Shown here one piece after another: positions 3,393 through 51,520 of a stretch of 64,000 nt of DNA. The notes under the pieces were generated by a model. That model was not told where the DNA came from. It worked only from the letters and a program-made list of their open reading frames with translations, and did no database searches. The stretch is from a virus. Location: positions 123,751 to 187,750 of IMG/VR virus record IMGVR_UViG_3300027793_000055. The stretch is one strand, 5' to 3'. Numbering within the stretch: the stretch's first letter is position 1; each line of letters begins with the position of its first letter. The position numbers were made by a program, and so were the translations under genes.

Positions 3393-3764
3393 TTACTTTT
3401 CTGAATCATTAAAATAATTTTCTGTTTCATATTGTCTTAAATACGTATTAAAACTCTCTAAATTCATACCTAAAAATCTAGCAGCTTCTGTTTTTGTACG
3501 TGTTGCAGATATAGCAAATTTAAGCATAGCATCTCTTACTATATTAGTAATAGCTGACCACAGTGGAATTCCATATATATGGCCTCCTGAAGCTCTTGCA
3601 GAGAGTTCTAACTTAACTGCTATTACTTCTTCTAAAGAAAGTTTATTTAGAAAGATCTGACATTGCTCATTAATTCTTGATTCACTTTCTAATCTGGATA
3701 TTACAGAGTAATACTTTCTGGTACCATATGGTTTCTTTTTTCTTTGGTATGGTACTGTCTTCAT
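3393..3764 (-). CDS. protein with C-terminal Fis-type HTH
   Basis: TRTKTEAARFLGMN motif. Confidence 0.6.
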   Translation of the reverse strand: MKTVPYQRKKKPYGTRKYYSVISRLESESRINEQCQIFLNKLSLEEVIAVKLELSARASGGHIYGIPLWSAITNIVRDAMLKFAISATRTKTEAARFLGMNLESFNTYLRQYETENYFNDSEK

Positions 3765-16092: not shown

Positions 16093-16833
16093 TTATAAAT
16101 CCTCTTGTTAACGTTAACAGGCTGCTATAATTTGCAAATTTCAGCCATTATGTTATTATATAGTGGCACTAGTACCCATTTAATTAGTTTTTTACTTAAC
16201 CGGTTAATTTTTTTCTCTATTTTTATGCATTTTAAAGCAGATAGCCTGCCTAATATAAACTGCAGATAATCTGCCTTGCATATGCTAACTCTACCACACT
16301 ATCTATATAGCCCTGCAAAGCAACAGGATGCATTATAGGGGCTTATATCCTCCTAGGCCGATATACGGCTAACTTGTATGCCACAGCCCTTCCTATGCTG
16401 TTTAAATTAAGCATTCTATCTTAAGCTTACTAACCGGTTAATTTTTTATTTTTTATATAAGCCTATTATAGCCTATATTAGCCTTAATAAACTATTAAAA
16501 CTATTAAATGCCTATATTGGTGCTTAGTGCCTAAAATTTTTCCAGAAAATTTTCTGCCTACCCCTTTAACACAGTGTGTTAAAAAAATTTCCAAAAATTT
16601 GGCCGGTATTTCTTGCGCGTACTTAGCCGCCAGTATATACTATATCTACCACTGGTACTTAGATTCCGGTATATAGGGGGGAGGGGGGGCACCTACCACC
16701 ATTTTTATATATTTATTTTATTGGCTTTGCTTATTTTTAAATATAAAAAAACCCACCTTGTTAGGGTGGGGCATTATGCTATTGCTGATCTGCCGGCCAG
16801 ATAGGCCGACAGACTATGTATCAATCCTAACAG
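16093..16833. other. long non-coding junction with palindromes, AAAATTTT tracts and G-run
   Basis: TGTTAACGTTAACA, TTAACCGGTTAA, GGGGGGAGGGGGGG near 16676-16689; no credible ORF. Confidence 0.7.
16745..16770 (-). terminator. intrinsic terminator
   Basis: CCCACC/GGTGGG stem + T7 on minus strand. Confidence 0.7.
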
Positions 16834-17223
16834 TCAAGCGCGGACAACAGAGATAACACCATCGTCAAAGGTCACAGAAACCTTGTCACCCTTGACCAGA
16901 CCAAGCAGACCAACGGGCAGACGAACAAAAGCGCCAGTCTCGCCGACTTCCTGCACAGTGTATTCACGGGTTGCGCCAACAGTAGCAGGCTTACGGCCGC
17001 GAACGCCACTGTTAACAGTAGAGAAAAGTTCGCTACGCAGAGCAGCCAGAGTATTGCCATGCTCGGTACCGTCAAACAGTGCAATAGCACCGTCAAGGGT
17101 CTTTGCGGTGAAGCCGGTACCATTGTGCAGATCACGAACCTTGCTAGCGCCGCCAGTGACAACAGCGAGGGCAATATCCTTGGCAGAAACAATAGCCTTG
17201 CGAGCGGTGTTGACGTTGGTCAT
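16834..17223 (-). CDS. GC-rich early protein with C-terminal AbrB/SpoVT-like domain
   Basis: VQEVGETGAFVRLPVGLLGLVKGDKVSVTFDDG; GAGG SD. Confidence 0.7.
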   Translation of the reverse strand: MTNVNTARKAIVSAKDIALAVVTGGASKVRDLHNGTGFTAKTLDGAIALFDGTEHGNTLAALRSELFSTVNSGVRGRKPATVGATREYTVQEVGETGAFVRLPVGLLGLVKGDKVSVTFDDGVISVVRA

Positions 17224-17304
17224 AGTATATACCTCTTATCACGAACAAGACGGTTAGGTTAGGAAAGCAGCTAGCGGTTACCGTCACCCGCTCGCCACCA
17301 GCAC

Positions 17305-17333
17305 ATTATAGCACGGGCTGAAAAGGAAGTCAA
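17305..17333 (-). promoter_or_regulatory. sigma70 promoter P1
   Basis: TTGACT-17-TATAAT, TG extension. Confidence 0.85.
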
Positions 17334-17529
17334 GCCCTCCGATGCTGCCGGCGTAAGTGCCTGAAAAGAGGGTTAATTTTTTTAGTGTATGTGATCTGGG
17401 AGAGATCACCGGGAGATCACTATATCTGATCTGTAACAGTTAAGGAGAGATCACGTGATACCTCTAGCTATAGCTATCGATACTTTTTTTATATACTCTC
17501 GCTAACTGCTCTTGCAGGAATAGAATAAC

Positions 17530-17553
17530 AAAAAACCGGCCTATAGGCCGGTT
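17530..17553 (-). terminator. intrinsic terminator
   Basis: AACCGGCC-TATA-GGCCGGTT + T-tract. Confidence 0.75.
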
Positions 17554-17584
17554 GGTATATACTTAATCTTCTGCAGTAGCTTGA

Positions 17585-17821
17585 TCAAAAAGCGGTGGAA
17601 AGCTCGCACACATCGACTTCCACAATAGCATCATGCTGCTTGACCATTGCAATATTGCCACACGGTGAAACGCGCATCACATGTCCACTGTGCTCTTTAC
17701 GATAGATCTCGACAGTCCGGCCCAGCTTGATACGTTCAAGGGTCTGCCAGATAACCGGCTTACCATCGAGATAGTGTGGGCGCGTTGTCATCATATAACC
17801 GGGCAGCTTAGGCTTATTCAT
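17585..17821 (-). CDS. hypothetical early protein
   Basis: ORF track; AGGAG SD. Confidence 0.7.
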   Translation of the reverse strand: MNKPKLPGYMMTTRPHYLDGKPVIWQTLERIKLGRTVEIYRKEHSGHVMRVSPCGNIAMVKQHDAIVEVDVCELSTAF

Positions 17822-17859
17822 GATATATCTCCTAGGAAAGAGTTAACGTTAACGTTATA

Positions 17860-18027
17860 TCAAAGGCCCAGCATGCTGGCCTGAACATGTCTTTTTTCAC
17901 TGTGACGGATGCCACGCCGTGTTGCAATCTTAACATGTCGACGCCAAAGAGAACCGGGCGAAACACATCGGCGGCAGATACATTCAGAAGCGGCACCATT
18001 GGCAAGGGAGCGGGTTTCTTTCGTCAT
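17860..18027 (-). CDS. basic Cys-containing early peptide, probably leaderless
   Basis: ATG 7 nt from the -10 of P2; CICRRC. Confidence 0.55.
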   Translation of the reverse strand: MTKETRSLANGAASECICRRCVSPGSLWRRHVKIATRRGIRHSEKRHVQASMLGL

Positions 18028-18033
18028 AGGCAC

Positions 18034-18062
18034 ATTATGCCACAAGCCCGCCGGAAAGTCAA
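18034..18062 (-). promoter_or_regulatory. sigma70 promoter P2
   Basis: TTGACT-17-CATAAT. Confidence 0.75.
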
Positions 18063-18157
18063 GCGGGAATGTGTGCGGCTGTAACCGGTTGAAAAAAGGG
18101 CTTTTTCTTTCATTATATCTGATCTGCGCAGTTAACTGACGAGATCAGATATAAAAG

Positions 18158-18340
18158 TTAATATGGCAGATCATCATCACAGTATGGTGAAAGTGGTAGG
18201 ATAAGTACGGTACCAGATGATACTTTTTCTTGACCTTGCTTTTTTCCATCGATATCATAGTGCACTTCTGAAAAGTGATGATCGGGGATATCATAATAAC
18301 CATCCTGAACGTAGAGATATTCCATATCTTTAATCCTCAC
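18158..18340 (-). CDS. hypothetical protein
   Basis: ORF track. Confidence 0.5.
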   Translation of the reverse strand: MRIKDMEYLYVQDGYYDIPDHHFSEVHYDIDGKKQGQEKVSSGTVLILPLSPYCDDDLPY

Positions 18341-18405
18341 CGGTTGAATAATCTATATAGAAAACAGGCACCCACGCCCGTTCACCTTCTTTTTTATTCT
18401 TCCGG

Positions 18406-18618
18406 TTAACTGTTATTCTTTTGCAACCAGCATTCCACCAGTTCCCGTAAAGATACTGTGGCCAGAACATGTTCTGGTTCTACTGTATCAATCCTACCAG
18501 AATCAAAAACTTCACCCTCACCTTCCCAAGTAAGAAAAGAAACCTGCACACCAGAAACTACATCCCAAGTCTCACCATCCGAAAGTGTAACAAAAGGGGT
18601 TGCGTCTGCCAGATTCAT
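18406..18618 (-). CDS. hypothetical protein
   Basis: ORF track; GGGAGG SD. Confidence 0.7.
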   Translation of the reverse strand: MNLADATPFVTLSDGETWDVVSGVQVSFLTWEGEGEVFDSGRIDTVEPEHVLATVSLRELVECWLQKNNS

Positions 18619-18667
18619 ATATCTACCTCCCTTAAGGGAAAAAGTGGCGATTCTATATAGAAAGAAA

Positions 18668-19102
18668 CTAGCTAGCCATATTCACCAGATGGGCAATAAC
18701 ACGAGGATCATTAAGATCATGCTTTTCCAGCATATCTTCGATCTTATTCTGAAGTGCATAGAAGCCCATATCGTTTTTCTTTTTGGCATATGCCATAAGA
18801 CCGGCAAGGTTAACGAGCAAACCATATTCCTGCAGGGAGTGAACACGATTAACTGTATCGTTAATCGTCTGGCACATATTCCTGCGAGCCATCTCTCTAT
18901 CTTTAATAACCTGATCATCACGTTGCCGCTGACGAATAGCCTTCTCAGTCTTAGCAACAGAAACAATATAGTTAACCTGATCAGTCAGCATATCAAGATC
19001 ACTGTCACTCAAACCAGCAACCTCCCCACGGCTCATGCTACCAATGGTAGTGATTGCATCCTGAAGCATTGCGAGGGTTTCAGCGGTGAGTGCGTTCGTC
19101 AT
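18668..19102 (-). CDS. helical early protein, probably leaderless
   Basis: ATG 7 nt from the -10 of P3. Confidence 0.75.
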   Translation of the reverse strand: MTNALTAETLAMLQDAITTIGSMSRGEVAGLSDSDLDMLTDQVNYIVSVAKTEKAIRQRQRDDQVIKDREMARRNMCQTINDTVNRVHSLQEYGLLVNLAGLMAYAKKKNDMGFYALQNKIEDMLEKHDLNDPRVIAHLVNMAS

Positions 19103-19108
19103 AGGGGC

Positions 19109-19136
19109 ATTATAGCAGAACCGGCAGGAAAGTCAA
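19109..19136 (-). promoter_or_regulatory. sigma70 promoter P3
   Basis: TTGACT-16-TATAAT. Confidence 0.8.
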
Positions 19137-19224
19137 GCACAGACTGCCCGCGATGCTAAACCCGCGATATATGGGGGCTTTTCATTTATTATACGTGATC
19201 TCTAATCGATCCCGGAGAGATCAC

Positions 19225-19471
19225 TATCCTTTTTTATAAGGATCCTCTCCTATCCCAGCATGATTCCTGAACCGGCTTTTCTAGCCAATATTTATAAAAT
19301 GGCTTCCGGATGCGGAGCACCCTTTTTTATAGCCTTTTATTCGACTTTCTCCCTATCTCTGAATGATTTAAAAATACACTTTTCTAGCCAATATCTATAA
19401 AACGGCTTCCTACTGCGGAACACCTTTTTCTATACCGTTTTATACGGTTTCTCCCCTATCCCATGATGATT
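19225..19471. repeat. imperfect non-coding tandem repeat, 103-bp period
   Basis: CTTTTCTAGCCAATAT at 19276 and 19379; ATGATT at 19260, 19363, 19466. Confidence 0.85.
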
Positions 19472-19652
19472 CTAGTAATCTAGCTGCAGCATATATTCTA
19501 TATACAGGTTAAACCTATAGGGTACTAACAAGCTTGTATTTTAAAATATAAACTTTTTTATCTTTTTTTTATCTTTTTTCTCTTTTTCTATTCTTTTTCT
19601 AAAATGGTACACTATTTAATTTGTATTGATCTGTTTGTGGTATAGTGATTTA

Positions 19653-19713
19653 ATACCCACCCTCCACCACCACTTTTTAACTTTCCCACCAGCTACGGCT
19701 GGTGTTTTTTTTT
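19653..19713 (+). ncRNA. candidate ~60-nt antisense-strand sRNA with C-rich (CCUCC) 5' region
   Basis: TGTGG-TATAGT extended -10 at 19636-19646; CACCAGC-TACG-GCTGGTG-T9 terminator at 19687-19713. Confidence 0.5.
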
Positions 19714-19801
19714 ACTAGATTATATCTACCGTGTAGCCGGCTATTTACGGAAACAAAAAGGGAGAAGTGGACACTTTTTTAAGTGACTGTTTTGGGCAGG
19801 T

Positions 19802-20023
19802 TTAATCTTCTATTACATTCCCTTTATATAGGGTTAACTGATGATTGGATACATATACAGTATTACCAGACAATAGATCTAGAAAGGTGTACCCTTCTTT
19901 TCTGGAATCTTTTTTTAGGGTTTCTTTATAGCTTCCTGAAAAGAATAGTAAAAGTCTATCCTTTTTAGCGCCTGAGAAGATATGACCTTCTATAGAAACA
20001 TGTTCATCTAGTAGGATTAACAT
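19802..20023 (-). CDS. small hypothetical protein (paralog family 2)
   Basis: MLILLD...LDLLSGN. Confidence 0.65.
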   Translation of the reverse strand: MLILLDEHVSIEGHIFSGAKKDRLLLFFSGSYKETLKKDSRKEGYTFLDLLSGNTVYVSNHQLTLYKGNVIED

Positions 20024-20126
20024 ATTATATTCTTCTTGTCTCGGCAGGATTATAGGATGGTGCTATAGTTAACCTGTCCTTCAATAAAGGCTAGTTTTAT
20101 ATCTTTGTGTCCTTATCTCAGGGATA

Positions 20127-20351
20127 CTATTGAAGGATGATACCACTTAGTGTTACCAGTTTAACTTGCCATGCATATAGGAAATATGATCTATCTGTTA
20201 AACTATTGATTATCCGATATACTGCAACTGTTTTTTGTATATTGTTTTCAATATCTTCTTTGTCATTCTCTTTTATAAAAAAGATTGCTCTTTCTTGTGT
20301 TTTTAATGATAACTCACCTATTGAGACTGGTCCTTCAAGTAGAATAAACAT
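20127..20351 (-). CDS. small hypothetical protein (paralog family 2)
   Basis: MFILLEG...NSLTDRSY; start moved from track 20402. Confidence 0.6.
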   Translation of the reverse strand: MFILLEGPVSIGELSLKTQERAIFFIKENDKEDIENNIQKTVAVYRIINSLTDRSYFLYAWQVKLVTLSGIILQ

Positions 20352-20376
20352 ATTTAATTCTTGTGTTCTCGGGAAC

Positions 20377-20598
20377 TTAAAATAGGGTACCTTTGGTAGC
20401 AAGAGATTCTAACACTATTACACCTAGATTAATCTCTTTTCCAGAAAGTATATCTGTAAACTTGGTGCTATTAATCTTGTTTTTTGGATTTGTTATATAG
20501 TGATAGGATGCTGGATTATAAAGTATAACTCTTTCACCTTCTCTGCCATAAAGAATACCAGTTACACTTATATACATATCATTAACCAATAGATACAT
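20377..20598 (-). CDS. small hypothetical protein (paralog family 2)
   Basis: MYLLVND...TDILSGK. Confidence 0.65.
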   Translation of the reverse strand: MYLLVNDMYISVTGILYGREGERVILYNPASYHYITNPKNKINSTKFTDILSGKEINLGVIVLESLATKGTLF

Positions 20599-20613
20599 AT
20601 TTAACCTTGTTTT

Positions 20614-20937
20614 CTAGTCTAATATGGTACCATATTTGATTAGTTTTTCTAAACCATCTGTATATAGACCATAAGTCTTATCTATCAGTAGATCTGTTAC
20701 TATATAGTAGTGATCTAGATTTGGATACTGTTCTAGATACTTGTATTTTTCATCCCTCAGATAAAATATTCTTCTTTGAAGTTTATAATCATCATCACTA
20801 AAAAGGTGTTGTATGCTAGCATAATCTGAATATGGCATATCTAGTAATTCAAGATTGTTTATTTCAATTATTATAAACATCCTTTTCTTATCTCGCTTAC
20901 CACTCACCCTTAACAAAGATTCCAAAACCACCAACAT
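20614..20937 (-). CDS. hypothetical protein (paralog family 2)
   Basis: VTDLLIDKTY; start uncertain. Confidence 0.6.
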   Translation of the reverse strand: MLVVLESLLRVSGKRDKKRMFIIIEINNLELLDMPYSDYASIQHLFSDDDYKLQRRIFYLRDEKYKYLEQYPNLDHYYIVTDLLIDKTYGLYTDGLEKLIKYGTILD

Positions 20938-21079
20938 TTTCAGTTTCTTCAGTCAGAAGTTGCAAAGTATAAGCTGGACACATAGAAGAAAAATCAATAC
21001 CAACAAAGTTTTCACTGATAATCTCTTTTTGCATCTCGATGATAGCCATATTCTGTTCTTCACGCGACTTTGCAATCAT
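20897..21079 (-). CDS. hypothetical protein
   Basis: ORF track; GAGG SD. Confidence 0.6.
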   Translation of the reverse strand: MIAKSREEQNMAIIEMQKEIISENFVGIDFSSMCPAYTLQLLTEETENVGGFGIFVKGEW

Positions 21080-21114
21080 ATTTTATAACCTCTTGTTTGT
21101 TGTGTGTTTAAAAT

Positions 21115-21138
21115 ATAAGAAGCCCCATTAGATGGGGC
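21115..21138 (-). terminator. intrinsic terminator
   Basis: GCCCCAT/ATGGGGC stem. Confidence 0.6.
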
Positions 21139-21150
21139 ACTCTTTATATA

Positions 21151-21354
21151 TCAAAGAACTGGAATATTTCTATTGAGATGGGTATAAATAGCACAATATG
21201 TATCAAGGTATGCATTCCAGTTTTGTGCATCCTGCACAAGCTGTGCATTTGTGCTATTTTCATCTTCTTGAAGATTTAAGAAAGTTTGACGCATATGCAG
21301 ACAATCAAAACTATTAATCATAGAAATAACACCATTGATAACTTGCTTATCCAT
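21151..21354 (-). CDS. hypothetical protein
   Basis: ORF track; AGGAG SD. Confidence 0.7.
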   Translation of the reverse strand: MDKQVINGVISMINSFDCLHMRQTFLNLQEDENSTNAQLVQDAQNWNAYLDTYCAIYTHLNRNIPVL

Positions 21355-21375
21355 ATTATCTCCTATTTCTCTTAA

Positions 21376-21666
21376 TCAGAGGAAAAAGTTTGTATCTACC
21401 TTAGACCAGTTTCCATTCCAAGGAACACCATTAAGATGAAGAATGTGCTTCTTATGATATACTCTAACTCCAGGAAGTCCATTTAGTCTTTCTTTTGTAG
21501 TGCTCGTATTCCAGCCACCAGTCTGAATATAAACACCATCATCTCTTACTTCAATAATCGGTGTATCCCAAAGATAGAGCCTATCACCAATAACTTTTGT
21601 ATTTTTTGAGCTATAGTTTTTGCCAATAAAAAGACATTCAATCGAACGCTTGGTTACGAGTCTCAC
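21376..21666 (-). CDS. conserved phage hypothetical protein
   Basis: GGWNTSTTKERLNGL motif. Confidence 0.75.
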   Translation of the reverse strand: MRLVTKRSIECLFIGKNYSSKNTKVIGDRLYLWDTPIIEVRDDGVYIQTGGWNTSTTKERLNGLPGVRVYHKKHILHLNGVPWNGNWSKVDTNFFL

Positions 21667-21691
21667 ATATATCCTTTTTTAACTTTTGTTT

Positions 21692-21767
21692 TGGTGGATT
21701 GAGTGGGGATCGAACCCACGGCCAATAGATTAAAAGTCTACTGCTCTACCATCTGAGCTATCAATCC
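21692..21767 (-). tRNA. tRNA-Lys(TTT), CCA encoded
   Basis: GGATTGA/TCAATCC, loop CT-TTT-AA, canonical D and T arms. Confidence 0.95.
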
Positions 21768-21770
21768 AAA

Positions 21771-21793
21771 TATCCGTTTTTACAGAACGGATA
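21771..21793 (-). repeat. tRNA 5'-leader hairpin, copy 1
   Basis: TATCCGTT/AACGGATA stem, same as 37214-37238. Confidence 0.75.
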
Positions 21794-21806
21794 AACTGTT
21801 TTTTTG

Positions 21807-21879
21807 CTGCCTAGCTTGGGTTCGAACCAAGGACATTTTGATTAACAGTCAAACGCTCTACCGACTGAGCTACTAGGCA
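21807..21879 (-). tRNA. tRNA-Asn(GTT), CCA not encoded
   Basis: TGCCTAG/CTAGGCA, G73, loop CT-GTT-AA. Confidence 0.95.
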
Positions 21880-21947
21880 ATAACCAGAATGACTTTATCA
21901 TACTGGCTATATTCTGTTAACTATTTCTATTTTGTTTTTTTATATAT

Positions 21948-22304
21948 TCACGCTGAATCTGCGAGTGCAGCATTGATCTCGTCTACAGTCATTGTACGAA
22001 CCTCACCCACATCATTCATAGGTTCTGCAACAGCGTCAGCTTCATTGGTATCAACAATAGGCTGAACAGTCAAAGACATAGCAGCCATAAAACTATCGCG
22101 ATCATAAAGGGCAGACGGCCGGCCGCGACCACCAGAAACCTGCTTTCCAACAGGAGTAAGATTAGCTGCTGCCAGCTTCTTCATAAGTGTAGCCTTAGAC
22201 ACGCCGGAAAGTTCAAGCATATCATTAATAGTAAGAGTCTCACCAGAAAAGTCAGGGTTATTGAAAATACGAGAAACACTAGAAACAACAGCGGTCTGTA
22301 CCAT
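21948..22304 (-). CDS. GC-rich early HTH DNA-binding protein
   Basis: LTINDMLELSGVSKATLMKKL, GRGRPSALY. Confidence 0.7.
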   Translation of the reverse strand: MVQTAVVSSVSRIFNNPDFSGETLTINDMLELSGVSKATLMKKLAAANLTPVGKQVSGGRGRPSALYDRDSFMAAMSLTVQPIVDTNEADAVAEPMNDVGEVRTMTVDEINAALADSA

Positions 22305-22362
22305 AACTACTCCACTTTATAATACAAAGCATAACGGGCTTTGTTCCGTTTGGCCACCGTGG

Positions 22363-22432
22363 CCACCAGCACATTCTAACACGGATCGGGCAAAGCGTCA
22401 AGCACCATCACCGAGCGGGCCTAAGTGCCTGA
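22363..22432 (-). promoter_or_regulatory. sigma70 promoter P4 (duplicated cassette, copy 1)
   Basis: TTGACG-17-TAGAAT; near-identical to 26896-26965. Confidence 0.85.
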
Positions 22433-22495
22433 TCTTGCTCGTGTTTTTATTTGTTTACAGTGATCTGCTTATCTGCTGGAGAGATCAGCCTACAC

Positions 22496-22711
22496 TTAAT
22501 ACACTTCTGAGTTGTTTATTAGATATTCTAAAGCACTACCACCAAATACTATTTCTTCACCATCCAATAGGTTTGTCAATATGATACTTTTATTGGTTTT
22601 ACCTTCGATGACATTTTCATATACTTTTATTGGAATCTTATATATCTCTCTTTTATCTGTGGAAGGATTCTCAAATAATATAAATTTAAAAACATCTTTT
22701 TTTGTTATCAT
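22496..22711 (-). CDS. small hypothetical protein (family 2-like)
   Basis: LTNLLDGEEI. Confidence 0.65.
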   Translation of the reverse strand: MITKKDVFKFILFENPSTDKREIYKIPIKVYENVIEGKTNKSIILTNLLDGEEIVFGGSALEYLINNSEVY

Positions 22712-22998
22712 TCTAGTTTGGCTCCTTCTTTTAGGATTCTACGAATACCTTGAGTTCGCAAGAAAGTAGTAAAATTTTCATACACATCAAAAACGTGGAA
22801 AGTACGTTGCGTTTTACGAGGATTAATAACTTCCTCTTCATAATCACGAAATGTTTCATCTAAAATAAAATAAAGGTTTCTTACAATGTATTCTTCTCCT
22901 GTTTCAAAGTTCTCGTATCGAGTATCGATAAGATAGTAGCTGCCTTTGGTTAGATCTAGAATCATTAGCTTACTCGTGGTTATCGATTCTCTTACCAA
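22708..22998 (-). CDS. hypothetical protein
   Basis: ORF track. Confidence 0.65.
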   Translation of the reverse strand: MVRESITTSKLMILDLTKGSYYLIDTRYENFETGEEYIVRNLYFILDETFRDYEEEVINPRKTQRTFHVFDVYENFTTFLRTQGIRRILKEGAKLE

Positions 22999-23224
22999 AA
23001 CTGACTAGCTGTTTTATTTCTAATGCTGTTAAATACTTTAAAGTATCGAGCATTAAATCTTCAATCTCATACTCATTGTTTTCTATAAATGAAATACCAA
23101 AATCTTCTAAGTCTTCAAAATATGAAATTGGTATCTTGATAACGTGTCTGATATCATTAATATCATCATACATATACACTCTAAATCTAACCTCAACAAT
23201 TGTTTTATCATTTGCATCAGACAT
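22970..23224 (-). CDS. hypothetical protein
   Basis: start moved to ATG 23224 (MSDANDK). Confidence 0.6.
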   Translation of the reverse strand: MSDANDKTIVEVRFRVYMYDDINDIRHVIKIPISYFEDLEDFGISFIENNEYEIEDLMLDTLKYLTALEIKQLVSFGKRIDNHE

Positions 23225-23232
23225 ATTAGCTT

Positions 23233-23487
23233 TTAATCCTCGATGCCAGAAACAATATATAAAAAACTGGATACTACTGTTGTAGTATGACCATTTTGCC
23301 AGTATATTCTGGCATACCATTCTTGTTCAAAAGTAAAAACTTCTACAATAAGTCCTAATAGATTAGGATCAGACAGATATATATCAGCTCTAACTAAATC
23401 ACCAACAAAAATAGGTTGAGTTTTCCTAGAAAAATGGTTTCCTCTATGTACCTTTTTTAGAAGATTATCCTTTTTTGTTTTTGGCAT
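23233..23487 (-). CDS. small SH3/KOW-like protein
   Basis: IFVGDLVRA...GLIVE...IYWQNG. Confidence 0.7.
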   Translation of the reverse strand: MPKTKKDNLLKKVHRGNHFSRKTQPIFVGDLVRADIYLSDPNLLGLIVEVFTFEQEWYARIYWQNGHTTTVVSSFLYIVSGIED

Positions 23488-23764
23488 TTTTACTTATTAC
23501 AACAATATCTGCTATGCGCCTTATTCTGGCTTTATGTAGTGTCTCTTCTCTATCTAGATTCTGCCAATAAACTCGCACAAAAGAAAGATTATTTTCATTT
23601 AAATCACAATCTTCTATATCCCACGTTGGATACCATTCAGTTTGAGATATTTCTTCTAATACTACACCTATTCCTCTTTCTAAAGGATCTCGACCAACAT
23701 ATTCAACTAAATCACCTTTTTGAAAGGAGTTTCTTTTATGTCTTGTGTGCGTTTTTGGCATCAT
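23465..23764 (-). CDS. small SH3/KOW-like protein
   Basis: FQKGDLVEY...GIGVV...VYWQN. Confidence 0.7.
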   Translation of the reverse strand: MMPKTHTRHKRNSFQKGDLVEYVGRDPLERGIGVVLEEISQTEWYPTWDIEDCDLNENNLSFVRVYWQNLDREETLHKARIRRIADIVVISKNAKNKKG

Positions 23765-23774
23765 GTATAAATAC

Positions 23775-23805
23775 AAAGAAGGGTGGCGTAAAACCACCCT
23801 TCTTT
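23775..23805. terminator. bidirectional terminator hairpin
   Basis: AAAGAAGGGTGG/CCACCCTTCTTT. Confidence 0.7.
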
Positions 23806-23813
23806 ATAATAAA

Positions 23814-25082
23814 TCAACCGTCTGCACAGTCCTTATCAGGAATAGCAATAATCTTCTCATTCGTCTGGAAATATGGTGAACGAGCACACGCTTCCGTGGT
23901 CATCCACATACGCTGACACTTACTAGCCTTTGGCTTTGGTGCATACATATCAGTCAGAACAATGTGGCCATCAAAGCTATTCTTATTCACATAGTCAGTA
24001 GGTGCATCAAAGTTAGTACCACCAGAAAGAACGCGCTCACGCTTATGCTTTGCACCCTTCTTCCATTCATAGACCTTTTCTTCATAAACGGCATCATCGA
24101 ATGGTACAACAGTAAATGTTGCAATCTCGGCCAGCTTATTCAGTTCAGCAAAGAAAGCAGCAAGCATACCATCATGCACAGAACCAGATTGATCAATCGA
24201 AACTGCAATACGGGCAGTACGAGCAGTCTTTCGACCCGGATGAATATAGGGATAACGACGATTGATCTTCTTCATCGAGTTAGAACGATCAGCAGCTTGC
24301 GAAGTCTTTACAAAATAGCGAAGAATAGACTTCCAATCAAGTTGAGACTTAATAGAATCCATAATCTGCTTCTGCATTTTATGTGAAACAGAACCCCAAC
24401 CGCGACCCTCCTTTACTACTTCTTCAACAGCGTCCTGAATAGCTTCCTTCAATCGTTCAGAAGCAATCTGTCGAGTTACAGAATCAACCTTGTCGCCTCC
24501 TTCTGTAGCCCATCCATCATGACTATCAAGAGAGTCAGGCATACCATCACCAGATTGTGGTTGACCCTTTCCGCCATTCTTTTCTTGTTCTTCTTCCTTC
24601 TTCTCCTTGATAATCTTATAATATTGCTCTGCAGAAAGGTATGGCTCCATATCTGCAAACATATTATTAGTTTCGCCGGTCTTTGGATCAGTATAAGAAC
24701 GACCGGGAATAACTGCAAATGCAGGAAGTTCATCAGCAATAAAAGAATTAATCGCAAGATCGGTTGCGATATTCCAGTTTCTATTCATACCATCTTCAGG
24801 CAAACGACCAGTCACATGTTCGAAAAGCAAGTGATAAAACTCGTGCTTCAATACACCAAGAATCTCAACCTGTTGGCGTTCTGGATCACCATTGCCAAGA
24901 GAATCAAAAAACTCTGGATTATACATCATTTCGAAGTAGCCAGAATCAGGATTAACCCGCACACCGGCAGTAGGAACAGCAGTAGAAGGAATCTTACTAA
25001 TACAACGTGAGATTGCAGCAAAAAATGGTTCCTTCTTAAGCAAGCGGAACATGTGCATATTGAGATCAAAACCAGTGGTCAT
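23814..25082 (-). CDS. vWA domain-containing metallopeptidase (DUF2201-like), MoxR partner
   Basis: LKHEFYHL, NIATDLAIN; C-terminal IDQSGS MIDAS, GGT.F, LTD. Confidence 0.85.
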   Translation of the reverse strand: MTTGFDLNMHMFRLLKKEPFFAAISRCISKIPSTAVPTAGVRVNPDSGYFEMMYNPEFFDSLGNGDPERQQVEILGVLKHEFYHLLFEHVTGRLPEDGMNRNWNIATDLAINSFIADELPAFAVIPGRSYTDPKTGETNNMFADMEPYLSAEQYYKIIKEKKEEEQEKNGGKGQPQSGDGMPDSLDSHDGWATEGGDKVDSVTRQIASERLKEAIQDAVEEVVKEGRGWGSVSHKMQKQIMDSIKSQLDWKSILRYFVKTSQAADRSNSMKKINRRYPYIHPGRKTARTARIAVSIDQSGSVHDGMLAAFFAELNKLAEIATFTVVPFDDAVYEEKVYEWKKGAKHKRERVLSGGTNFDAPTDYVNKNSFDGHIVLTDMYAPKPKASKCQRMWMTTEACARSPYFQTNEKIIAIPDKDCADG

Positions 25083-25122
25083 GATTAACTTCCTTTTATA
25101 GTGTGATCTGCTGAATAGTCTC

Positions 25123-25161
25123 TGCCCATCGTCATTATAGCACGATGGGCACAGAAGTCAA
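25123..25161 (-). promoter_or_regulatory. sigma70 promoter P5 with -10 enclosed by a 10-bp inverted repeat
   Basis: TTGACT-16-TATAAT; TGCCCATCGT/ACGATGGGCA. Confidence 0.8.
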
Positions 25162-25203
25162 GTGTTGGCTGGAGTTTGTATATAATACTAAAAATGTTCT
25201 TGT

Positions 25204-25698
25204 TTACTGAATAAGATAACCTTTACCTTTTGCAGCAGTAACAACATATGTCATAAGAAATTTAGCGGCATAACTATAATACTGATCTGTATCAATATCG
25301 ATATTAAGTTTCTTGGCTAATGTTTCACCTCGACGCCACGCTTCTGTTTCTTCCTCTATTTCTTCAATAAGGAAGCGCATAGTTTTCAATTTACGTGGAT
25401 CTTTATCGGCAGCTTCAAGTGCTTTATACTTCTTATTGAAGTTCTTATCGCGATTTAGAATATGGCCACACTCATGAAGTATGCTGAAAAGCTGATTATG
25501 TGACTTAGATCTTTCTGAAAGAAAGACTAGTTTCATTTCAAAGTCTACACTATCAACTATATGCTTTGTTTTACCACGAATGACTTTATAGCCACGCTTG
25601 GCTAGCCATGATTCGATAATATTTATCTTATCTTGCCAAAAAGAGCTTGAAACGTCTTTCTCCTTGGTCATATTAGTATATAGTGTCTTTTTAAGCAT
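25204..25698 (-). CDS. HExxH (IrrE/ImmA-like) metallopeptidase
   Basis: LFSILHECGHI, EEETEAWRRG. Confidence 0.7.
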   Translation of the reverse strand: MLKKTLYTNMTKEKDVSSSFWQDKINIIESWLAKRGYKVIRGKTKHIVDSVDFEMKLVFLSERSKSHNQLFSILHECGHILNRDKNFNKKYKALEAADKDPRKLKTMRFLIEEIEEETEAWRRGETLAKKLNIDIDTDQYYSYAAKFLMTYVVTAAKGKGYLIQ

Positions 25699-25763
25699 AA
25701 TTTGACTTTATTTATAATAAGTGAAGGGTGATACACTAATAATGTATCACCCCTCACAGTTAA

Positions 25764-26849
25764 TCACTTCTTGGTAGCTACATCAGAAAGCAGCTTAGTG
25801 ATATAATCACCAACCTTAACACCATTAATCACAGCCTTGTGGAGTGCAATAGTGTTATCCTTTGGAGCGGGGGGACGACCAACATTCTTCCACAGCTTCA
25901 TTGTGGCTTCTGAAGGAAGCATAAACAAATAGGTAGCAAGATTAGTGATCTGTTCAGTAGTCAGCTTATCCTGCAAAACCTTGCAAGCATCCATCTTATC
26001 GATCAGCTGAATATGCTCATTGAGAGCAAACTTCTCAACAAGATTGAACTTACCATTATCAATAATATCAGCCGGTGTAACGATTCGCTGATAGTTCTGA
26101 ATAAAACTACCAAGTTCGATGGCTGCTTCATAACCAATAAATGCAGCAGAAAGAGGAATAATATCCTTGCTGTATTCGCCAGTCAACAGACCAGCATGCT
26201 GCATTACATCATTGCAACGCTTCCAAGAACGTCGTGAAGGATACTTCTTGTTTGGCTCAAAATCACCATTATTATGCTCAAGATGATTGCGATGATTATT
26301 GATAAAGTCCCAGATAACACTGTGGACATTATCCTTAGCCCAAGCAAGCCAATCTTCGATAGTAGGCTCAACGTCAAAGACAGACCAACGATCAAGTTCC
26401 GCCGGATCCATCTCACCAACCTGATACTGTGCAGCGTGCATACCGCCGTTAACAGCAGCAAAGATACGAGTGCCACGGTGAAGCACATGACCATTCAGCT
26501 TACGAGAATCAGTAAGCTCAAAGATACCCTGACGAACCTCGATGGTTGCACGATCAACCTCATCAAGAAACAAAACGACGGGATGCTCGCAAGCCTCCTT
26601 AAACCAATCCGGCGGATTGAAAGAGGTACGATTACCATTAATCGAAGGCAGACCAACAAGATCGCCCTCCGTCATCTGTGATGCACGACGTTCAACAACC
26701 GGCATGCCGAGTTCTCGTGCAACCTGATACACAAGTTCGGACTTACCAATACCATGACGACCACGAATAAGAATCGGCTTTGCTTCTGCAATAACCGAAG
26801 GAATAATGCGATTGAAAGTGGCAAAGTCAACAGAAAGACCAAAGGACAT
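25764..26849 (-). CDS. MoxR-like AAA+ ATPase
   Basis: GRHGIGKS, LFLDEVDR, MDPAELDRW, PSRRSW. Confidence 0.9.
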   Translation of the reverse strand: MSFGLSVDFATFNRIIPSVIAEAKPILIRGRHGIGKSELVYQVARELGMPVVERRASQMTEGDLVGLPSINGNRTSFNPPDWFKEACEHPVVLFLDEVDRATIEVRQGIFELTDSRKLNGHVLHRGTRIFAAVNGGMHAAQYQVGEMDPAELDRWSVFDVEPTIEDWLAWAKDNVHSVIWDFINNHRNHLEHNNGDFEPNKKYPSRRSWKRCNDVMQHAGLLTGEYSKDIIPLSAAFIGYEAAIELGSFIQNYQRIVTPADIIDNGKFNLVEKFALNEHIQLIDKMDACKVLQDKLTTEQITNLATYLFMLPSEATMKLWKNVGRPPAPKDNTIALHKAVINGVKVGDYITKLLSDVATKK

Positions 26850-26895
26850 GCGAACCTCTTACGTTATTGTTTGACCGTGAATCGCACCATGCGAG

Positions 26896-26965
26896 CCACC
26901 AGCACATTCTAACACGGATCGGGCAAAGCGTCAAGCACCATCGCCGAGCGCACCTAAGTGCTTGA
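26896..26965 (-). promoter_or_regulatory. sigma70 promoter P6 (duplicated cassette, copy 2)
   Basis: TTGACG-17-TAGAAT; near-identical to 22363-22432. Confidence 0.85.
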
Positions 26966-27044
26966 AACTACGGCAGTTTTATTTAGTTCAGGGTGATCTA
27001 TCACAGATCATCCGCTTCACTATGTAGACACTAAGCACATAAGC

Positions 27045-50062: not shown

Positions 50063-50327
50063 TTTCTTTCCTTTCGTTAAAATTAGTAATCATTTTCTGT
50101 AATGATTTCTGTGCCTTATCCCAGCACTCTGGACAATAAACTTTTACACTCTGTTCGGCATTTTTTACAACGACAAACCAGCTTTGTACCTGTTGTTTAT
50201 TCTTTCTGTCAAAGGCTGTTTCACAAGTATAACACTGATCGGGAAGCCTGTCAAACATATTCAGCTTTTGATTTAAATCTTTTTTTTGTTCTTTATGGGT
50301 TTGTTTATTTGGTTCTATTTTTTTCAT
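50037..50327 (-). CDS. conserved large-phage zinc-binding protein
   Basis: CYTC...YCPECW. Confidence 0.75.
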   Translation of the reverse strand: MKKIEPNKQTHKEQKKDLNQKLNMFDRLPDQCYTCETAFDRKNKQQVQSWFVVVKNAEQSVKVYCPECWDKAQKSLQKMITNFNERKENVPEISNL

Positions 50328-51021
50328 TGTTTATTCTTTCTAGAGATTTCTGATAATATTCCTCACTTATCTCCGTACCAATAAAACTTCTTTCGTTTCT
50401 TATGCAGGAAATAGCGGTTGTTGATGAACCGGCAAAAGGATCACAAACAATATCACCAATATTTGAATGTTTTTTAACAAGATCAGAGAATAGATCTACA
50501 GATTTTTGAGTTGGATGAAATCTATCTTTACCGTGGTAAATGGGATAAGAATAAATTCCATTATCATACTCGCTATTAAAAGTTGGTTTTGATTTTTTGA
50601 TTGCCAAAACAGCTACTTCTCTTGCGTTTGTTAAATAATTAATTTTAGAATTAATAGGTACCGGATTTGTCTTAACCCATTCAAGAAATCTTATTTGTTT
50701 AAATTTATTTGCTTCATATTCTTCTTTTAGTTCCTGAATTTTCCAAAGATCATAAAAGATAATACTGGTGCCTGTTGGTTTTAGAATTCTGTGAATTTCT
50801 GATAGAATTGATTTAAGATCTAATTGTTTTTCATCCCATTCACCAAATTCATAACTCATCTTAAATCTTTCAATTGTTTTCTCGCCTTTACTAGCAAGAA
50901 AACCAGTCTTTCTAGATATAAGATATGGTGGATCTGTCAATACTAAATCAACACTGTTATCTGGAATCTTTTTAAGAAACTCTAGACAGTCTAAATTATA
51001 TAAGTCACACTTTTGTGGCAT
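50305..51021 (-). CDS. DNA N6/N4 methyltransferase (beta class)
   Basis: DPPY, HPTQKS, DPFAGS; start moved to ATG 51021. Confidence 0.9.
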   Translation of the reverse strand: MPQKCDLYNLDCLEFLKKIPDNSVDLVLTDPPYLISRKTGFLASKGEKTIERFKMSYEFGEWDEKQLDLKSILSEIHRILKPTGTSIIFYDLWKIQELKEEYEANKFKQIRFLEWVKTNPVPINSKINYLTNAREVAVLAIKKSKPTFNSEYDNGIYSYPIYHGKDRFHPTQKSVDLFSDLVKKHSNIGDIVCDPFAGSSTTAISCIRNERSFIGTEISEEYYQKSLERINNEKNRTK

Positions 51022-51520
51022 ATTTGTAAATTTCTCCAGTGGATATTGTAGCACCAAGACGTGGATCTTTCAACGGCTTATTTGAAGTTTTCATTTTCAT
51101 AAACTTCTTTTTTAGTTTTGGCAACAATATTTCATAAACCTGAGTACCGCTCATCTTCCACGTTTCAACAATATTACCATTTTTATCAAAGCGAGAATAA
51201 AAGTGTTCCTCGTAACACAGGATTTTTTCTTCTTTCAGATATTTTTCTTGCTCTTCCCAAGTTTCTAGAACAGAAATACCATTATATGTTGCATTTATTT
51301 TATCACTAATTGTTGATTTATATTCAACTTTTTTACCTTCAGAATTAAAGGCATCTGCACCAGAATACGTTTGTGCTACTGTATGACCAAATTTAAATGC
51401 TTGATATATCTCTTTTCCACGAGCATAAGAAAAAGGATCACCAACACCATTTTCATAACATATTTTAGTTAATTTTTCAAAAAGTTCAACATACTGTTCT
51501 TTAAACGAACTCGTTGTCAT
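51005..51520 (-). CDS. putative restriction endonuclease (PD-(D/E)XK)
   Basis: GADA..VEYKS; overlaps the MTase gene. Confidence 0.5.
   Translation of the reverse strand: MTTSSFKEQYVELFEKLTKICYENGVGDPFSYARGKEIYQAFKFGHTVAQTYSGADAFNSEGKKVEYKSTISDKINATYNGISVLETWEEQEKYLKEEKILCYEEHFYSRFDKNGNIVETWKMSGTQVYEILLPKLKKKFMKMKTSNKPLKDPRLGATISTGEIYKYATKV

Follow-up and report, generated by a model that had tools for sequence, protein, structure and literature searches.

Temperate phages are known to combine phased operator arrays with IHF. At Mu Pe, a site for integration host factor (IHF) lies beside the operators. In phages 186 and P2, the Apl and Cox proteins, wHTH regulators of the recombination-directionality type, bind cooperatively to sites one helical turn apart, bend the DNA and repress the phage early promoters, and at att IHF joins them in their complexes (PMC7498355, PMC3936717); at lambda PL, according to the account of Giladi 1998 given in PMC1784095, IHF brings a distant UP element to RNA polymerase. 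Here we describe an element of this kind from an uncultivated T4-like phage (IMG/VR record IMGVR_UViG_3300027793_000055; 187,750 bp, genome GC 34.3%), of which the final 64 kb (positions 123,751 to 187,750; herein referred to as the window, whose numbering is used unless a contig is named) were analysed. Five early promoters in the window (P1, P2, P3, P4 and P6) are each preceded by the same ordered module, which runs from an array of GATC-centred sites through an A-tract, a 13-bp IHF-like box and a GC-rich 20-bp spacer to the -35 hexamer, and which is a real, conserved and clade-restricted cis-regulatory element and probably the operator of a phage-made regulator. An earlier reading made from the letters alone (the sequence-only reading) had recognized the layout, called it enhancer-like and knew of no such architecture described for phage early promoters. 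That statement was too strong given the four temperate-phage systems above, and in the literature we found neither a phased operator array with IHF described for T4-like phages nor a paper linking IHF to T4-like early promoters. The kind of architecture (phased operators with an architectural bend) is known, and its GATC-array version is distinct.

The module resembles the Apl and Cox arrays in having several short sites ~10–11 bp apart, and the product of the P4 gene offers a Cox/HTH_17-like lead. Apl and Cox sites, however, are all direct repeats lying between or over the promoters, whereas the array here lies 62–120 bp upstream of the -35 and its sites are of mixed but slot-fixed orientation (slots 4 and 1 forward, slot 3 inverted, slot 2 either way), which differs from the direct repeats of recombination directionality factors. 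Unlike 186 and P2, the phage is a lytic-type T4-like virus (no integrase search was made). As at lambda PL and Mu Pe, a constant distance separates a strong phage early promoter from an upstream site for a bending protein that delivers upstream DNA or protein to RNA polymerase (here IHF-like and predicted); those two, however, are single temperate-coliphage promoters with proven IHF binding, whereas here five promoters share a phased array and boxes with 1–3 mismatches.

Phased repeats are also bound by the AbrB superfamily, whose members have a swapped-hairpin-type beta domain and in which MraZ binds as an oligomer to TGGGN repeats of 10-bp period upstream of its own promoter and autoregulates, and to which AbrB and MazE also belong. 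The C terminus of the P1 protein resembles AbrB and MazE (below significance), but the domain is N-terminal in AbrB, MazE and MraZ, and the motif (AGATCAC) and the promoter distance differ. The omega protein of pSM19035 is a small protein that serves several promoters through upstream arrays of WATCACW repeats, both direct and inverted; the ATCAC core and the placement of short-repeat arrays upstream of several promoters are shared with the module, whereas the omega sites are contiguous heptads (7-bp period) abutting the -35 and are bound by a plasmid ribbon-helix-helix protein. GATC clusters read by SeqA or Dam occur at oriC, lambda pR and, with OxyR, Mu mom, and the pac site of phage P1 combines TGATCA/G hexamers with an IHF site. 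Like these clusters, the arrays group GATC on one helical face near control regions; unlike them, they have flank and orientation constraints and five promoter-linked copies, in a phage in which Dam and SeqA were not found. Closer to T4 itself, promoter-early stem-loop elements (PeSLs), which are repeated strong sigma70-type early promoters next to terminator hairpins, set small early genes apart and shuffle them in T4-type genomes (PMC2839356). Gene shuffling is seen here too, in the gene order of the closest relative and in a repeat shared by P4 and P6; PeSLs, however, consist of promoter and stem-loop only, and neither a 100-bp upstream module of protein sites nor phased operators are described for them.

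The timing and shut-off of early transcription in T4 are understood in terms of AsiA, MotA and Alt/Mod, and early shut-off is not understood in the very large environmental T4-like groups that are without them. The module is a concrete cis-element (a defined 7-bp site, fixed slots and a fixed promoter distance) for which two candidate trans-factors can be named; the phages of its clade come from freshwater and engineered environments. If the operator reading is true, it would represent a form of early-gene control not described for T4-like phages.

Architecture of the module

A five-way alignment of the modules, which lie on the minus strand together with the genes around them, retains an invariant AGATCA, an A-rich block, the pattern T.TC...TTA, GC-TTGAC and the -10 hexamer. 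The GATC inverted repeats reported by the sequence-only reading at 19195–19224 and 18114–18153 are present (the latter a perfect 12-bp inverted repeat inside the P2 array); however, each array is not one inverted pair but a series of two to five GATC-centred sites with ~11-bp phasing. With site positions given as the GATC start counted from the -35 start, the proximal AGATCA has its GATC 62–64 bp upstream in all five modules. The P1 array (17391–17455) comprises five sites (17393-96, 17404-07, 17415-18, 17428-31 and 17449-52, that is -63, -74, -85, -98 and -119), the P2 array (18114–18172) three (18121-24, 18143-46 and 18169-72; -62, -84 and -110) and the P3 array (19195–19244) four (19197-200, 19208-11, 19219-22 and 19241-44; -64, -75, -86 and -108). 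Two sites each make up the P4 array (22460–22488; 22462-65 and 22483-86; -64 and -85), in which they form an inverted pair two turns apart, and the P6 array (26993–27011; 26995-98 and 27006-09; -64 and -75). Site spacings are 10–13 and 20–24 bp, and the two spacing classes of the inverted repeat (half-sites 5 vs 15–16 bp apart) differ by one helical turn; the best-fitting period is 11–11.5 bp (Rayleigh-type test, p ~7e-4, window modules only).

By our own arithmetic, GATC would fall by chance into a 4-nt slot at every one of the five promoters with a probability of roughly 6e-10, and the genome-wide density of GATC is not unusual (683 per 187,750 bp vs 585 expected). The 8-mers GAGATCAC and GTGATCTC occur six times in the genome, five of these copies being in the modules of P1 and P3, and a scan of the whole genome (187.7 kb) revealed no module beyond these five places. 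P4 and P6 lie in a 105-nt repeat of 83% identity that brackets 4.5 kb; their GATC arrays are mostly outside its near-identical part, and the array sequences differ.

Between array and promoter, the A-tract and box occupy 17354–17385 at P1 (A7 and box TTTCAGGCACTTA, 17366-17354, ending 20 bp before the -35), 18082–18110 at P2 (A-rich tract and box TTTCAACCGGTTA, 18094-18082), 19157–19190 at P3 (A-rich tract and box TATCGCGGGTTTA, 19169-19157), 22422–22455 at P4 (A-tract and box GATCAGGCACTTA, 22434-22422) and 26955–26988 at P6 (A-tract and box TTTCAAGCACTTA, 26967-26955). The box begins at -33/-32 from the -35, and its fixed position stands as originally claimed, although the gap is 19–20 bp rather than the 20–21 bp first counted. 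We tested the IHF core as the 13-bp WATCAR-N4-TTR: mismatches to WATCARNNNNTTR number 1, 1, 2, 1 and 1 at P1, P2, P3, P4 and P6, against a background in which 0.22% of genome 13-mers have at most one mismatch and 1.65% at most two. The TC and TTR positions are near-invariant across modules, whereas the N4 positions are G/C-rich and alike within each genome. At the lambda H' IHF site the gap between A-tract and core is 8 bp; here, with few exceptions among the modules, 9–10 bp separate the end of an A4–A7 tract from the box, as the A/T-tract of an IHF site would be placed.

The core promoters themselves were correctly identified by the sequence-only reading, all of whose quoted sequences and coordinates were verified. 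Their -35 hexamers begin at 17333, 18062, 19136, 22401 and 26934, and all five combine TTGACT or TTGACG, a spacer of 16–17 bp, TG and then TATAAT, CATAAT or TAGAAT (pattern TTGAC-N16/17-TGnTAnAAT). P1 (17305–17333) reads TTGACT-N17-(TG)TATAAT followed by GCTGGTGG, P2 (18034–18062) TTGACT-N17-(TG)CATAAT and P3 (19109–19136) TTGACT-N16-(TG)TATAAT, while P4 (22373–22401) and P6 (26906–26934) both read TTGACG-N17-(TG)TAGAAT, the latter driving the AAA_5 (CobS/MoxR-like) gene at 25764–26849. A sixth strong promoter (25161-25134; P5 of the earlier reading) is without the module.

Conservation and clade restriction

With the AAA gene as query, 224 IMG/VR relatives were retrieved and 80 loci kept, among which only the closest, IMGVR_UViG_3300027747_003046 (herein G001; AAA identity 79%), has the module. 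It carries five syntenic copies, with downstream proteins 42–80% identical to those of the window and a cassette order partly rearranged relative to the window genome (G000); in the orthologous modules the array, A-tract, box and core are kept while the 20-bp spacer and the bases between sites diverge. In the other 79 loci (AAA identity 57–64%, 1.08 Mb) there is no module, and the promoter before the AAA gene is AT-rich and of the ordinary UP type; the VWA gene is present in 76, but the P1, P3 and P4 genes have no homologues, module and cassette genes thus occurring together. A core gene, the CobS/MoxR-like ATPase, has had a plain AT-rich promoter swapped for a module-type promoter.

An IMG/VR scan with the P1 protein alone found no relatives; these came instead through the AAA gene and a protein database of 5.8 billion proteins, which holds just 28 clusters of homologues of the P1 product. 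Nine contigs fetched from these clusters gave, with the window genome and G001, a total of 11, of which 10 supply a canonical set of 30 modules in six paralog classes, and the eleventh (L092) carries a variant that is counted apart. The sequence-only reading had made its case depend on spacing being conserved in relatives, and it is: across six promoter classes and 10 contigs, positions are fixed while sequence diverges, which supports the view that the layout is functional rather than a product of chance.

Across the 30 modules, slot 1 (-62 to -65) is occupied in 30/30, reads A-GATC-A in every case and has C as the next base in 23/30; slot 2 (-72 to -75) is occupied in 24/30, in either orientation. 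Slot 3 (-84 to -86) is filled in 26/30 and reads T-GATC-T in 23–24 of the 26, and slot 4 (-97 to -99) is filled in 15/30 and reads A-GATC-A in 12–14 of the 15. A few loose distal GATC sites lie at -108 to -121, none occurs outside the slots between -55 and -100, and GATC itself is invariant at 95/95 slot sites. The repeated unit, as judged from these alignments, is an asymmetric site of roughly rGAGATCAC whose orientation is set by its slot, and the slot-specific flanks and orientation favour a sequence-specific protein over a reader of bare GATC. Among the boxes, those of three relatives (L087, L090 and L097) are without any mismatch to the IHF core, and in the X-class modules of the relatives the box is one half of a GCGGGG/CCCCGC hairpin with T-rich sequence after it.

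Outside the clade, the architecture was sought with a strict pattern (GATC-N6/7-GATCA-N27/28-TC-N6-TTR-N20-TTGAC). In IMG/VR this matched only G001 plus two chance hits, and in 596 Gb of bacterial genomes it gave 23 scattered matches in coding sequence, about the number estimated from the specificity of the pattern. In the window, each module promoter forms, with the first gene behind it, a GC island (16700–17490, 17570–18220, 18800–19330, 21950–22420 and 26280–27020) of 47–56% GC in the 34% GC genome. These islands and their absence from more distant relatives suggest cassettes acquired from a higher-GC source. The modules illustrate how GC-rich regulatory cassettes spread inside an AT-rich genome and how an upstream operator array with a putative bend site can be grafted onto ordinary sigma70 promoters.

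Modules are also lost, replaced or internally deleted among close relatives. At L090:2549–2640, an X-class module has lost an internal stretch, so that its box runs straight into the promoter spacer; the -35 is gone, whereas array and A-tract are kept. At L087:8806–8900, a P2-like GATC array remains, and the promoter behind it is replaced by a terminator and oppositely oriented genes.

Candidate binders and the proposed feedback control

The P1 gene (16834–17223, minus strand) encodes 129 aa; four helices form the N-terminal part, and the C-terminal domain (residues ~81–129) is probably AbrB/MazE-like. The nearly invariant C terminus is DNA-binding-like (VQEVGETGAFVRLPVGLLGL.KGD), the Atlas structural neighbours of residues 81–129 are all MazE, AbrB or SymE clusters, and Foldseek returns recurrent weak matches to AbrB-N, MazE and Sso7c4 (22–28% identity, non-significant E of 0.8–4); a PDB sequence search with the P1-protein profile gave nothing meaningful. 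Homologues of the gene (45–99% identity) have a 4–5-site array in front in 11/11 contigs, including the most distant, L092, and this array is the largest in each of the 11, a pattern expected of an autoregulator. We consider the P1 product the best candidate for an array-binding autoregulator. The P4 gene (21948–22304, minus strand; 118 aa) has an HTH_17 / Cox-Xis-like lead, in that its G001 orthologue matches HTH_17 (E = 2.8e-4) and P2 Cox appears in the Atlas listing, and its product is the second candidate for an array- or box-binding protein. The sequence-only reading had proposed both, together with a Fis-like product at 3393; the first two remain plausible, whereas the third has neither a family match nor a link to the module.

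We hypothesize, with a probability of about one half, that a phage-encoded oligomerising regulator acts on the array, with a bend setting the geometry, in feedback control of a clade-specific early-gene regulon. As we infer the binder, the bend and the sign of regulation, the array would be bound cooperatively, on one helix face, by an oligomerising phage DNA-binding protein made from the same promoters, either the AbrB/MazE-fold P1 product, which would be autoregulated, or alternatively the Cox/Xis-like P4 product. At the A-tract and box, host IHF or a protein equivalent to it would act architecturally by bending the DNA, and the bend would fold the loaded array back against RNA polymerase, a step proposed to explain the fixed distances. 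Most probably, immediate-early transcription would be shut off or tuned by feedback. Obligatory activation is less likely than such control, given the consensus -35, optimal spacer and extended -10 found in every core. Of the enhancer-like description, the fixed and functional character of the layout is supported, and obligatory activation is unlikely, every core being activator-independent in signature. The lie of arrays between terminators and promoters, and the lack of any Rfam match, make a DNA-level role likely. A more elaborate picture, which we hold to be doubtful, would have the immediate-early genes controlled by an AbrB-fold 'repressosome', an autoregulator polymerised on phased AGATCAC sites ~100 bp upstream of the five consensus promoters and reaching RNA polymerase through an IHF-type U-turn, in a clade without detectable AsiA or MotA; a methylation-sensing role for the GATC sites is possible, and could in this picture couple shut-off to replication.

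Several observations weigh against feedback control by a phage regulator. At ~95–150 bp upstream of the start site, the array is clear of RNA polymerase, so that repression would need either a bend or a protein that spreads along the DNA. Confidence in the AF2 model of the P1 protein is low (pLDDT 63), no family of Pfam, NCBIfam or PHROG reaches threshold with it and no Foldseek match is significant. Co-occurrence of module and P1 gene is weak evidence, many genes being clade-specific, and the L087 orthologue of the P4 gene has a plain promoter, which makes the module dispensable for that gene. All sites are GATC-centred, which would also fit a methylation-reading host factor. As for the bend, the P1-class box in most relatives is TTTCGCGGACTTG, with 3 mismatches that include the CAR positions, and L092 (45% P1-protein identity) has neither an A-tract nor the 5' half of the box but keeps its array, with four sites lying 31 bp (three turns) nearer to the -35. 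The array is therefore conserved more deeply than the box, which may have been added later. The IHF assignment made by the sequence-only reading is thus only partly upheld: the A-tract spacing and the 1–2 mismatches of the window boxes speak for it, and the P1-class boxes of relatives and L092 against it.

The main alternatives differ in what they ask of the array. In enhancer-like activation, an array-bound activator would reach RNA polymerase through an IHF U-turn, or IHF would deliver an A-rich distant UP element to the alpha C-terminal domain as at lambda PL; both routes would raise promoter output. The rigid, helically phased geometry would suit this, as would an A-tract placed 9–10 bp upstream of a WATCAR-N4-TTR-like core as in IHF sites, and the usual UP-element zone (-40 to -57) is GC-rich in the modules and unusable as such, while distant relatives are AT-rich there. 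We nonetheless regard activation as unlikely: activator-dependent promoters normally lack either the consensus -35 or the extended -10, L092 has an array without a bend site and most P1-class boxes match IHF poorly. Nor are the cores those of sigma54 enhancers (-24 GG/-12 GC), being of the sigma70 -35/-10 type with an extended -10. A host GATC reader, either SeqA-like or a regulator competing with Dam methylation in the manner of OxyR, Lrp or HdfR, would instead tie early promoter activity to the methylation or replication status of phage DNA, and can point to the invariance of GATC at all slot sites, to P3 sites that hold GATC and lose the flanks (e.g., GGATCC and GGATCG), to the one N6-adenine methyltransferase of the phage and to spacings of ~10–11 and 21–22 bp, SeqA being known to prefer GATC spacings of 10 or 20 bp and to do so in vivo (PMC2912659). 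The arrays likewise offer at least two GATC on the same helical face no more than about three turns apart, as SeqA targets do. The conserved slot-specific flanks and orientation, however, are not needed by bare-GATC readers, genome-wide GATC is unremarkable, SeqA and Dam (PF02086) were not found in the phage and the architecture was not found in the bacterial genomes searched; SeqA is, to our knowledge, confined to some Gammaproteobacteria. We therefore consider this explanation distinctly unlikely.

If, on the other hand, the modules were PeSL-type cassette boundaries, they would be homology patches for shuffling GC-rich early cassettes, with the GATC sites as inherited baggage. PeSLs are documented in T4-type phages (PMC2839356), cassette order differs between the window genome and G001, the 105-nt direct repeat of P4 and P6 surrounds 4.5 kb, and modules have been gained, lost or internally deleted in close relatives (L087 P4, L087 P2 and L090 at 2549). 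Terminator hairpins also precede P1 (17553-17534) and, in relatives, the P3-class modules, with no adjoining stem-loop at P2, P4 or P6. Paralogous modules, however, share little beyond short motifs and would be poor recombination substrates except for P4/P6, and neither the positional conservation of those motifs nor the 11-bp phasing and slot orientation is explained. As a full account this is very unlikely; the PeSL-like cassette dynamics are best seen as an additional consequence of repeated promoters rather than as an alternative.

Other element types were considered and rejected. A T4 MotA-box middle promoter is suggested by a TGCTTGA that overlaps the -35, but the -10 spacing is 16–17 rather than 11–13 bp and searches for MotA and AsiA, run without a positive control, gave no match. 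GTGATCT/AGATCAC would supply ideal halves of a CRP palindrome, but GTGA and TCAC are 10–11 or 21 bp apart rather than 6. An intrinsic terminator or RNA element fails as a general explanation, with no T-run after the repeats on either strand and no Rfam family, and the five promoter-linked copies argue against both a replication origin and a pac site.

Genomic surroundings and further observations

The genome encodes a DnaE-type polymerase, GroEL, the CobS/MoxR-like AAA_5 ATPase and a DUF2201/VWA protein; among GenBank phages no close relative of the record was found, and protein-level matches are distant only. A search of the phage for psbA found none, and a cyanobacterial host was rejected on this ground; the style of promoters and Shine-Dalgarno sequences hints at a proteobacterial-type host. 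Searches of the phage for HU/IHF (Bac_DNA_binding), as for SeqA and Dam, found none, and AsiA and MotA had no match in searches that were both run without a positive control. The sole DNA methyltransferase found (50305–51057, minus strand; PF01555) is of a CcrM/PRK13699-like N6-adenine type.

In P2 and P3, the -10 hexamer is followed exactly 7 nt on by an ATG (18027 and 19102, minus strand), and leaderless mRNAs are possible for the 55-aa Arg/Cys-rich open reading frame (ORF) at 17860–18027 and the 144-aa gene at 18668–19102. The E. coli Chi octamer GCTGGTGG directly follows the -10 of P1, P4 and P6 (17295–17302, 22363–22370 and 26896–26903, minus strand). Genome-wide it has 18 copies vs ~0.8 expected, 15 of the 18 on the minus strand; it is not conserved at the orthologous G001 promoters, and several copies in the window genome lie in Gly-rich coding sequence. 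Elsewhere in the genome, ~85.7–86.8 kb before the window start, GATCAC recurs about seven times, every ~180 bp, which points to a tandem repeat with units of about that length outside the window. Two tandem 103-bp units that are 74% identical (19249–19454) lie upstream of P3 in sequence free of ORFs, and on the minus strand each has a late-promoter-like motif of the TATAAATA type and a hairpin of the GCTTCCGGATGCGGAGC type; similar GATCGGTATAAA units recur in L087, L090 and G001.

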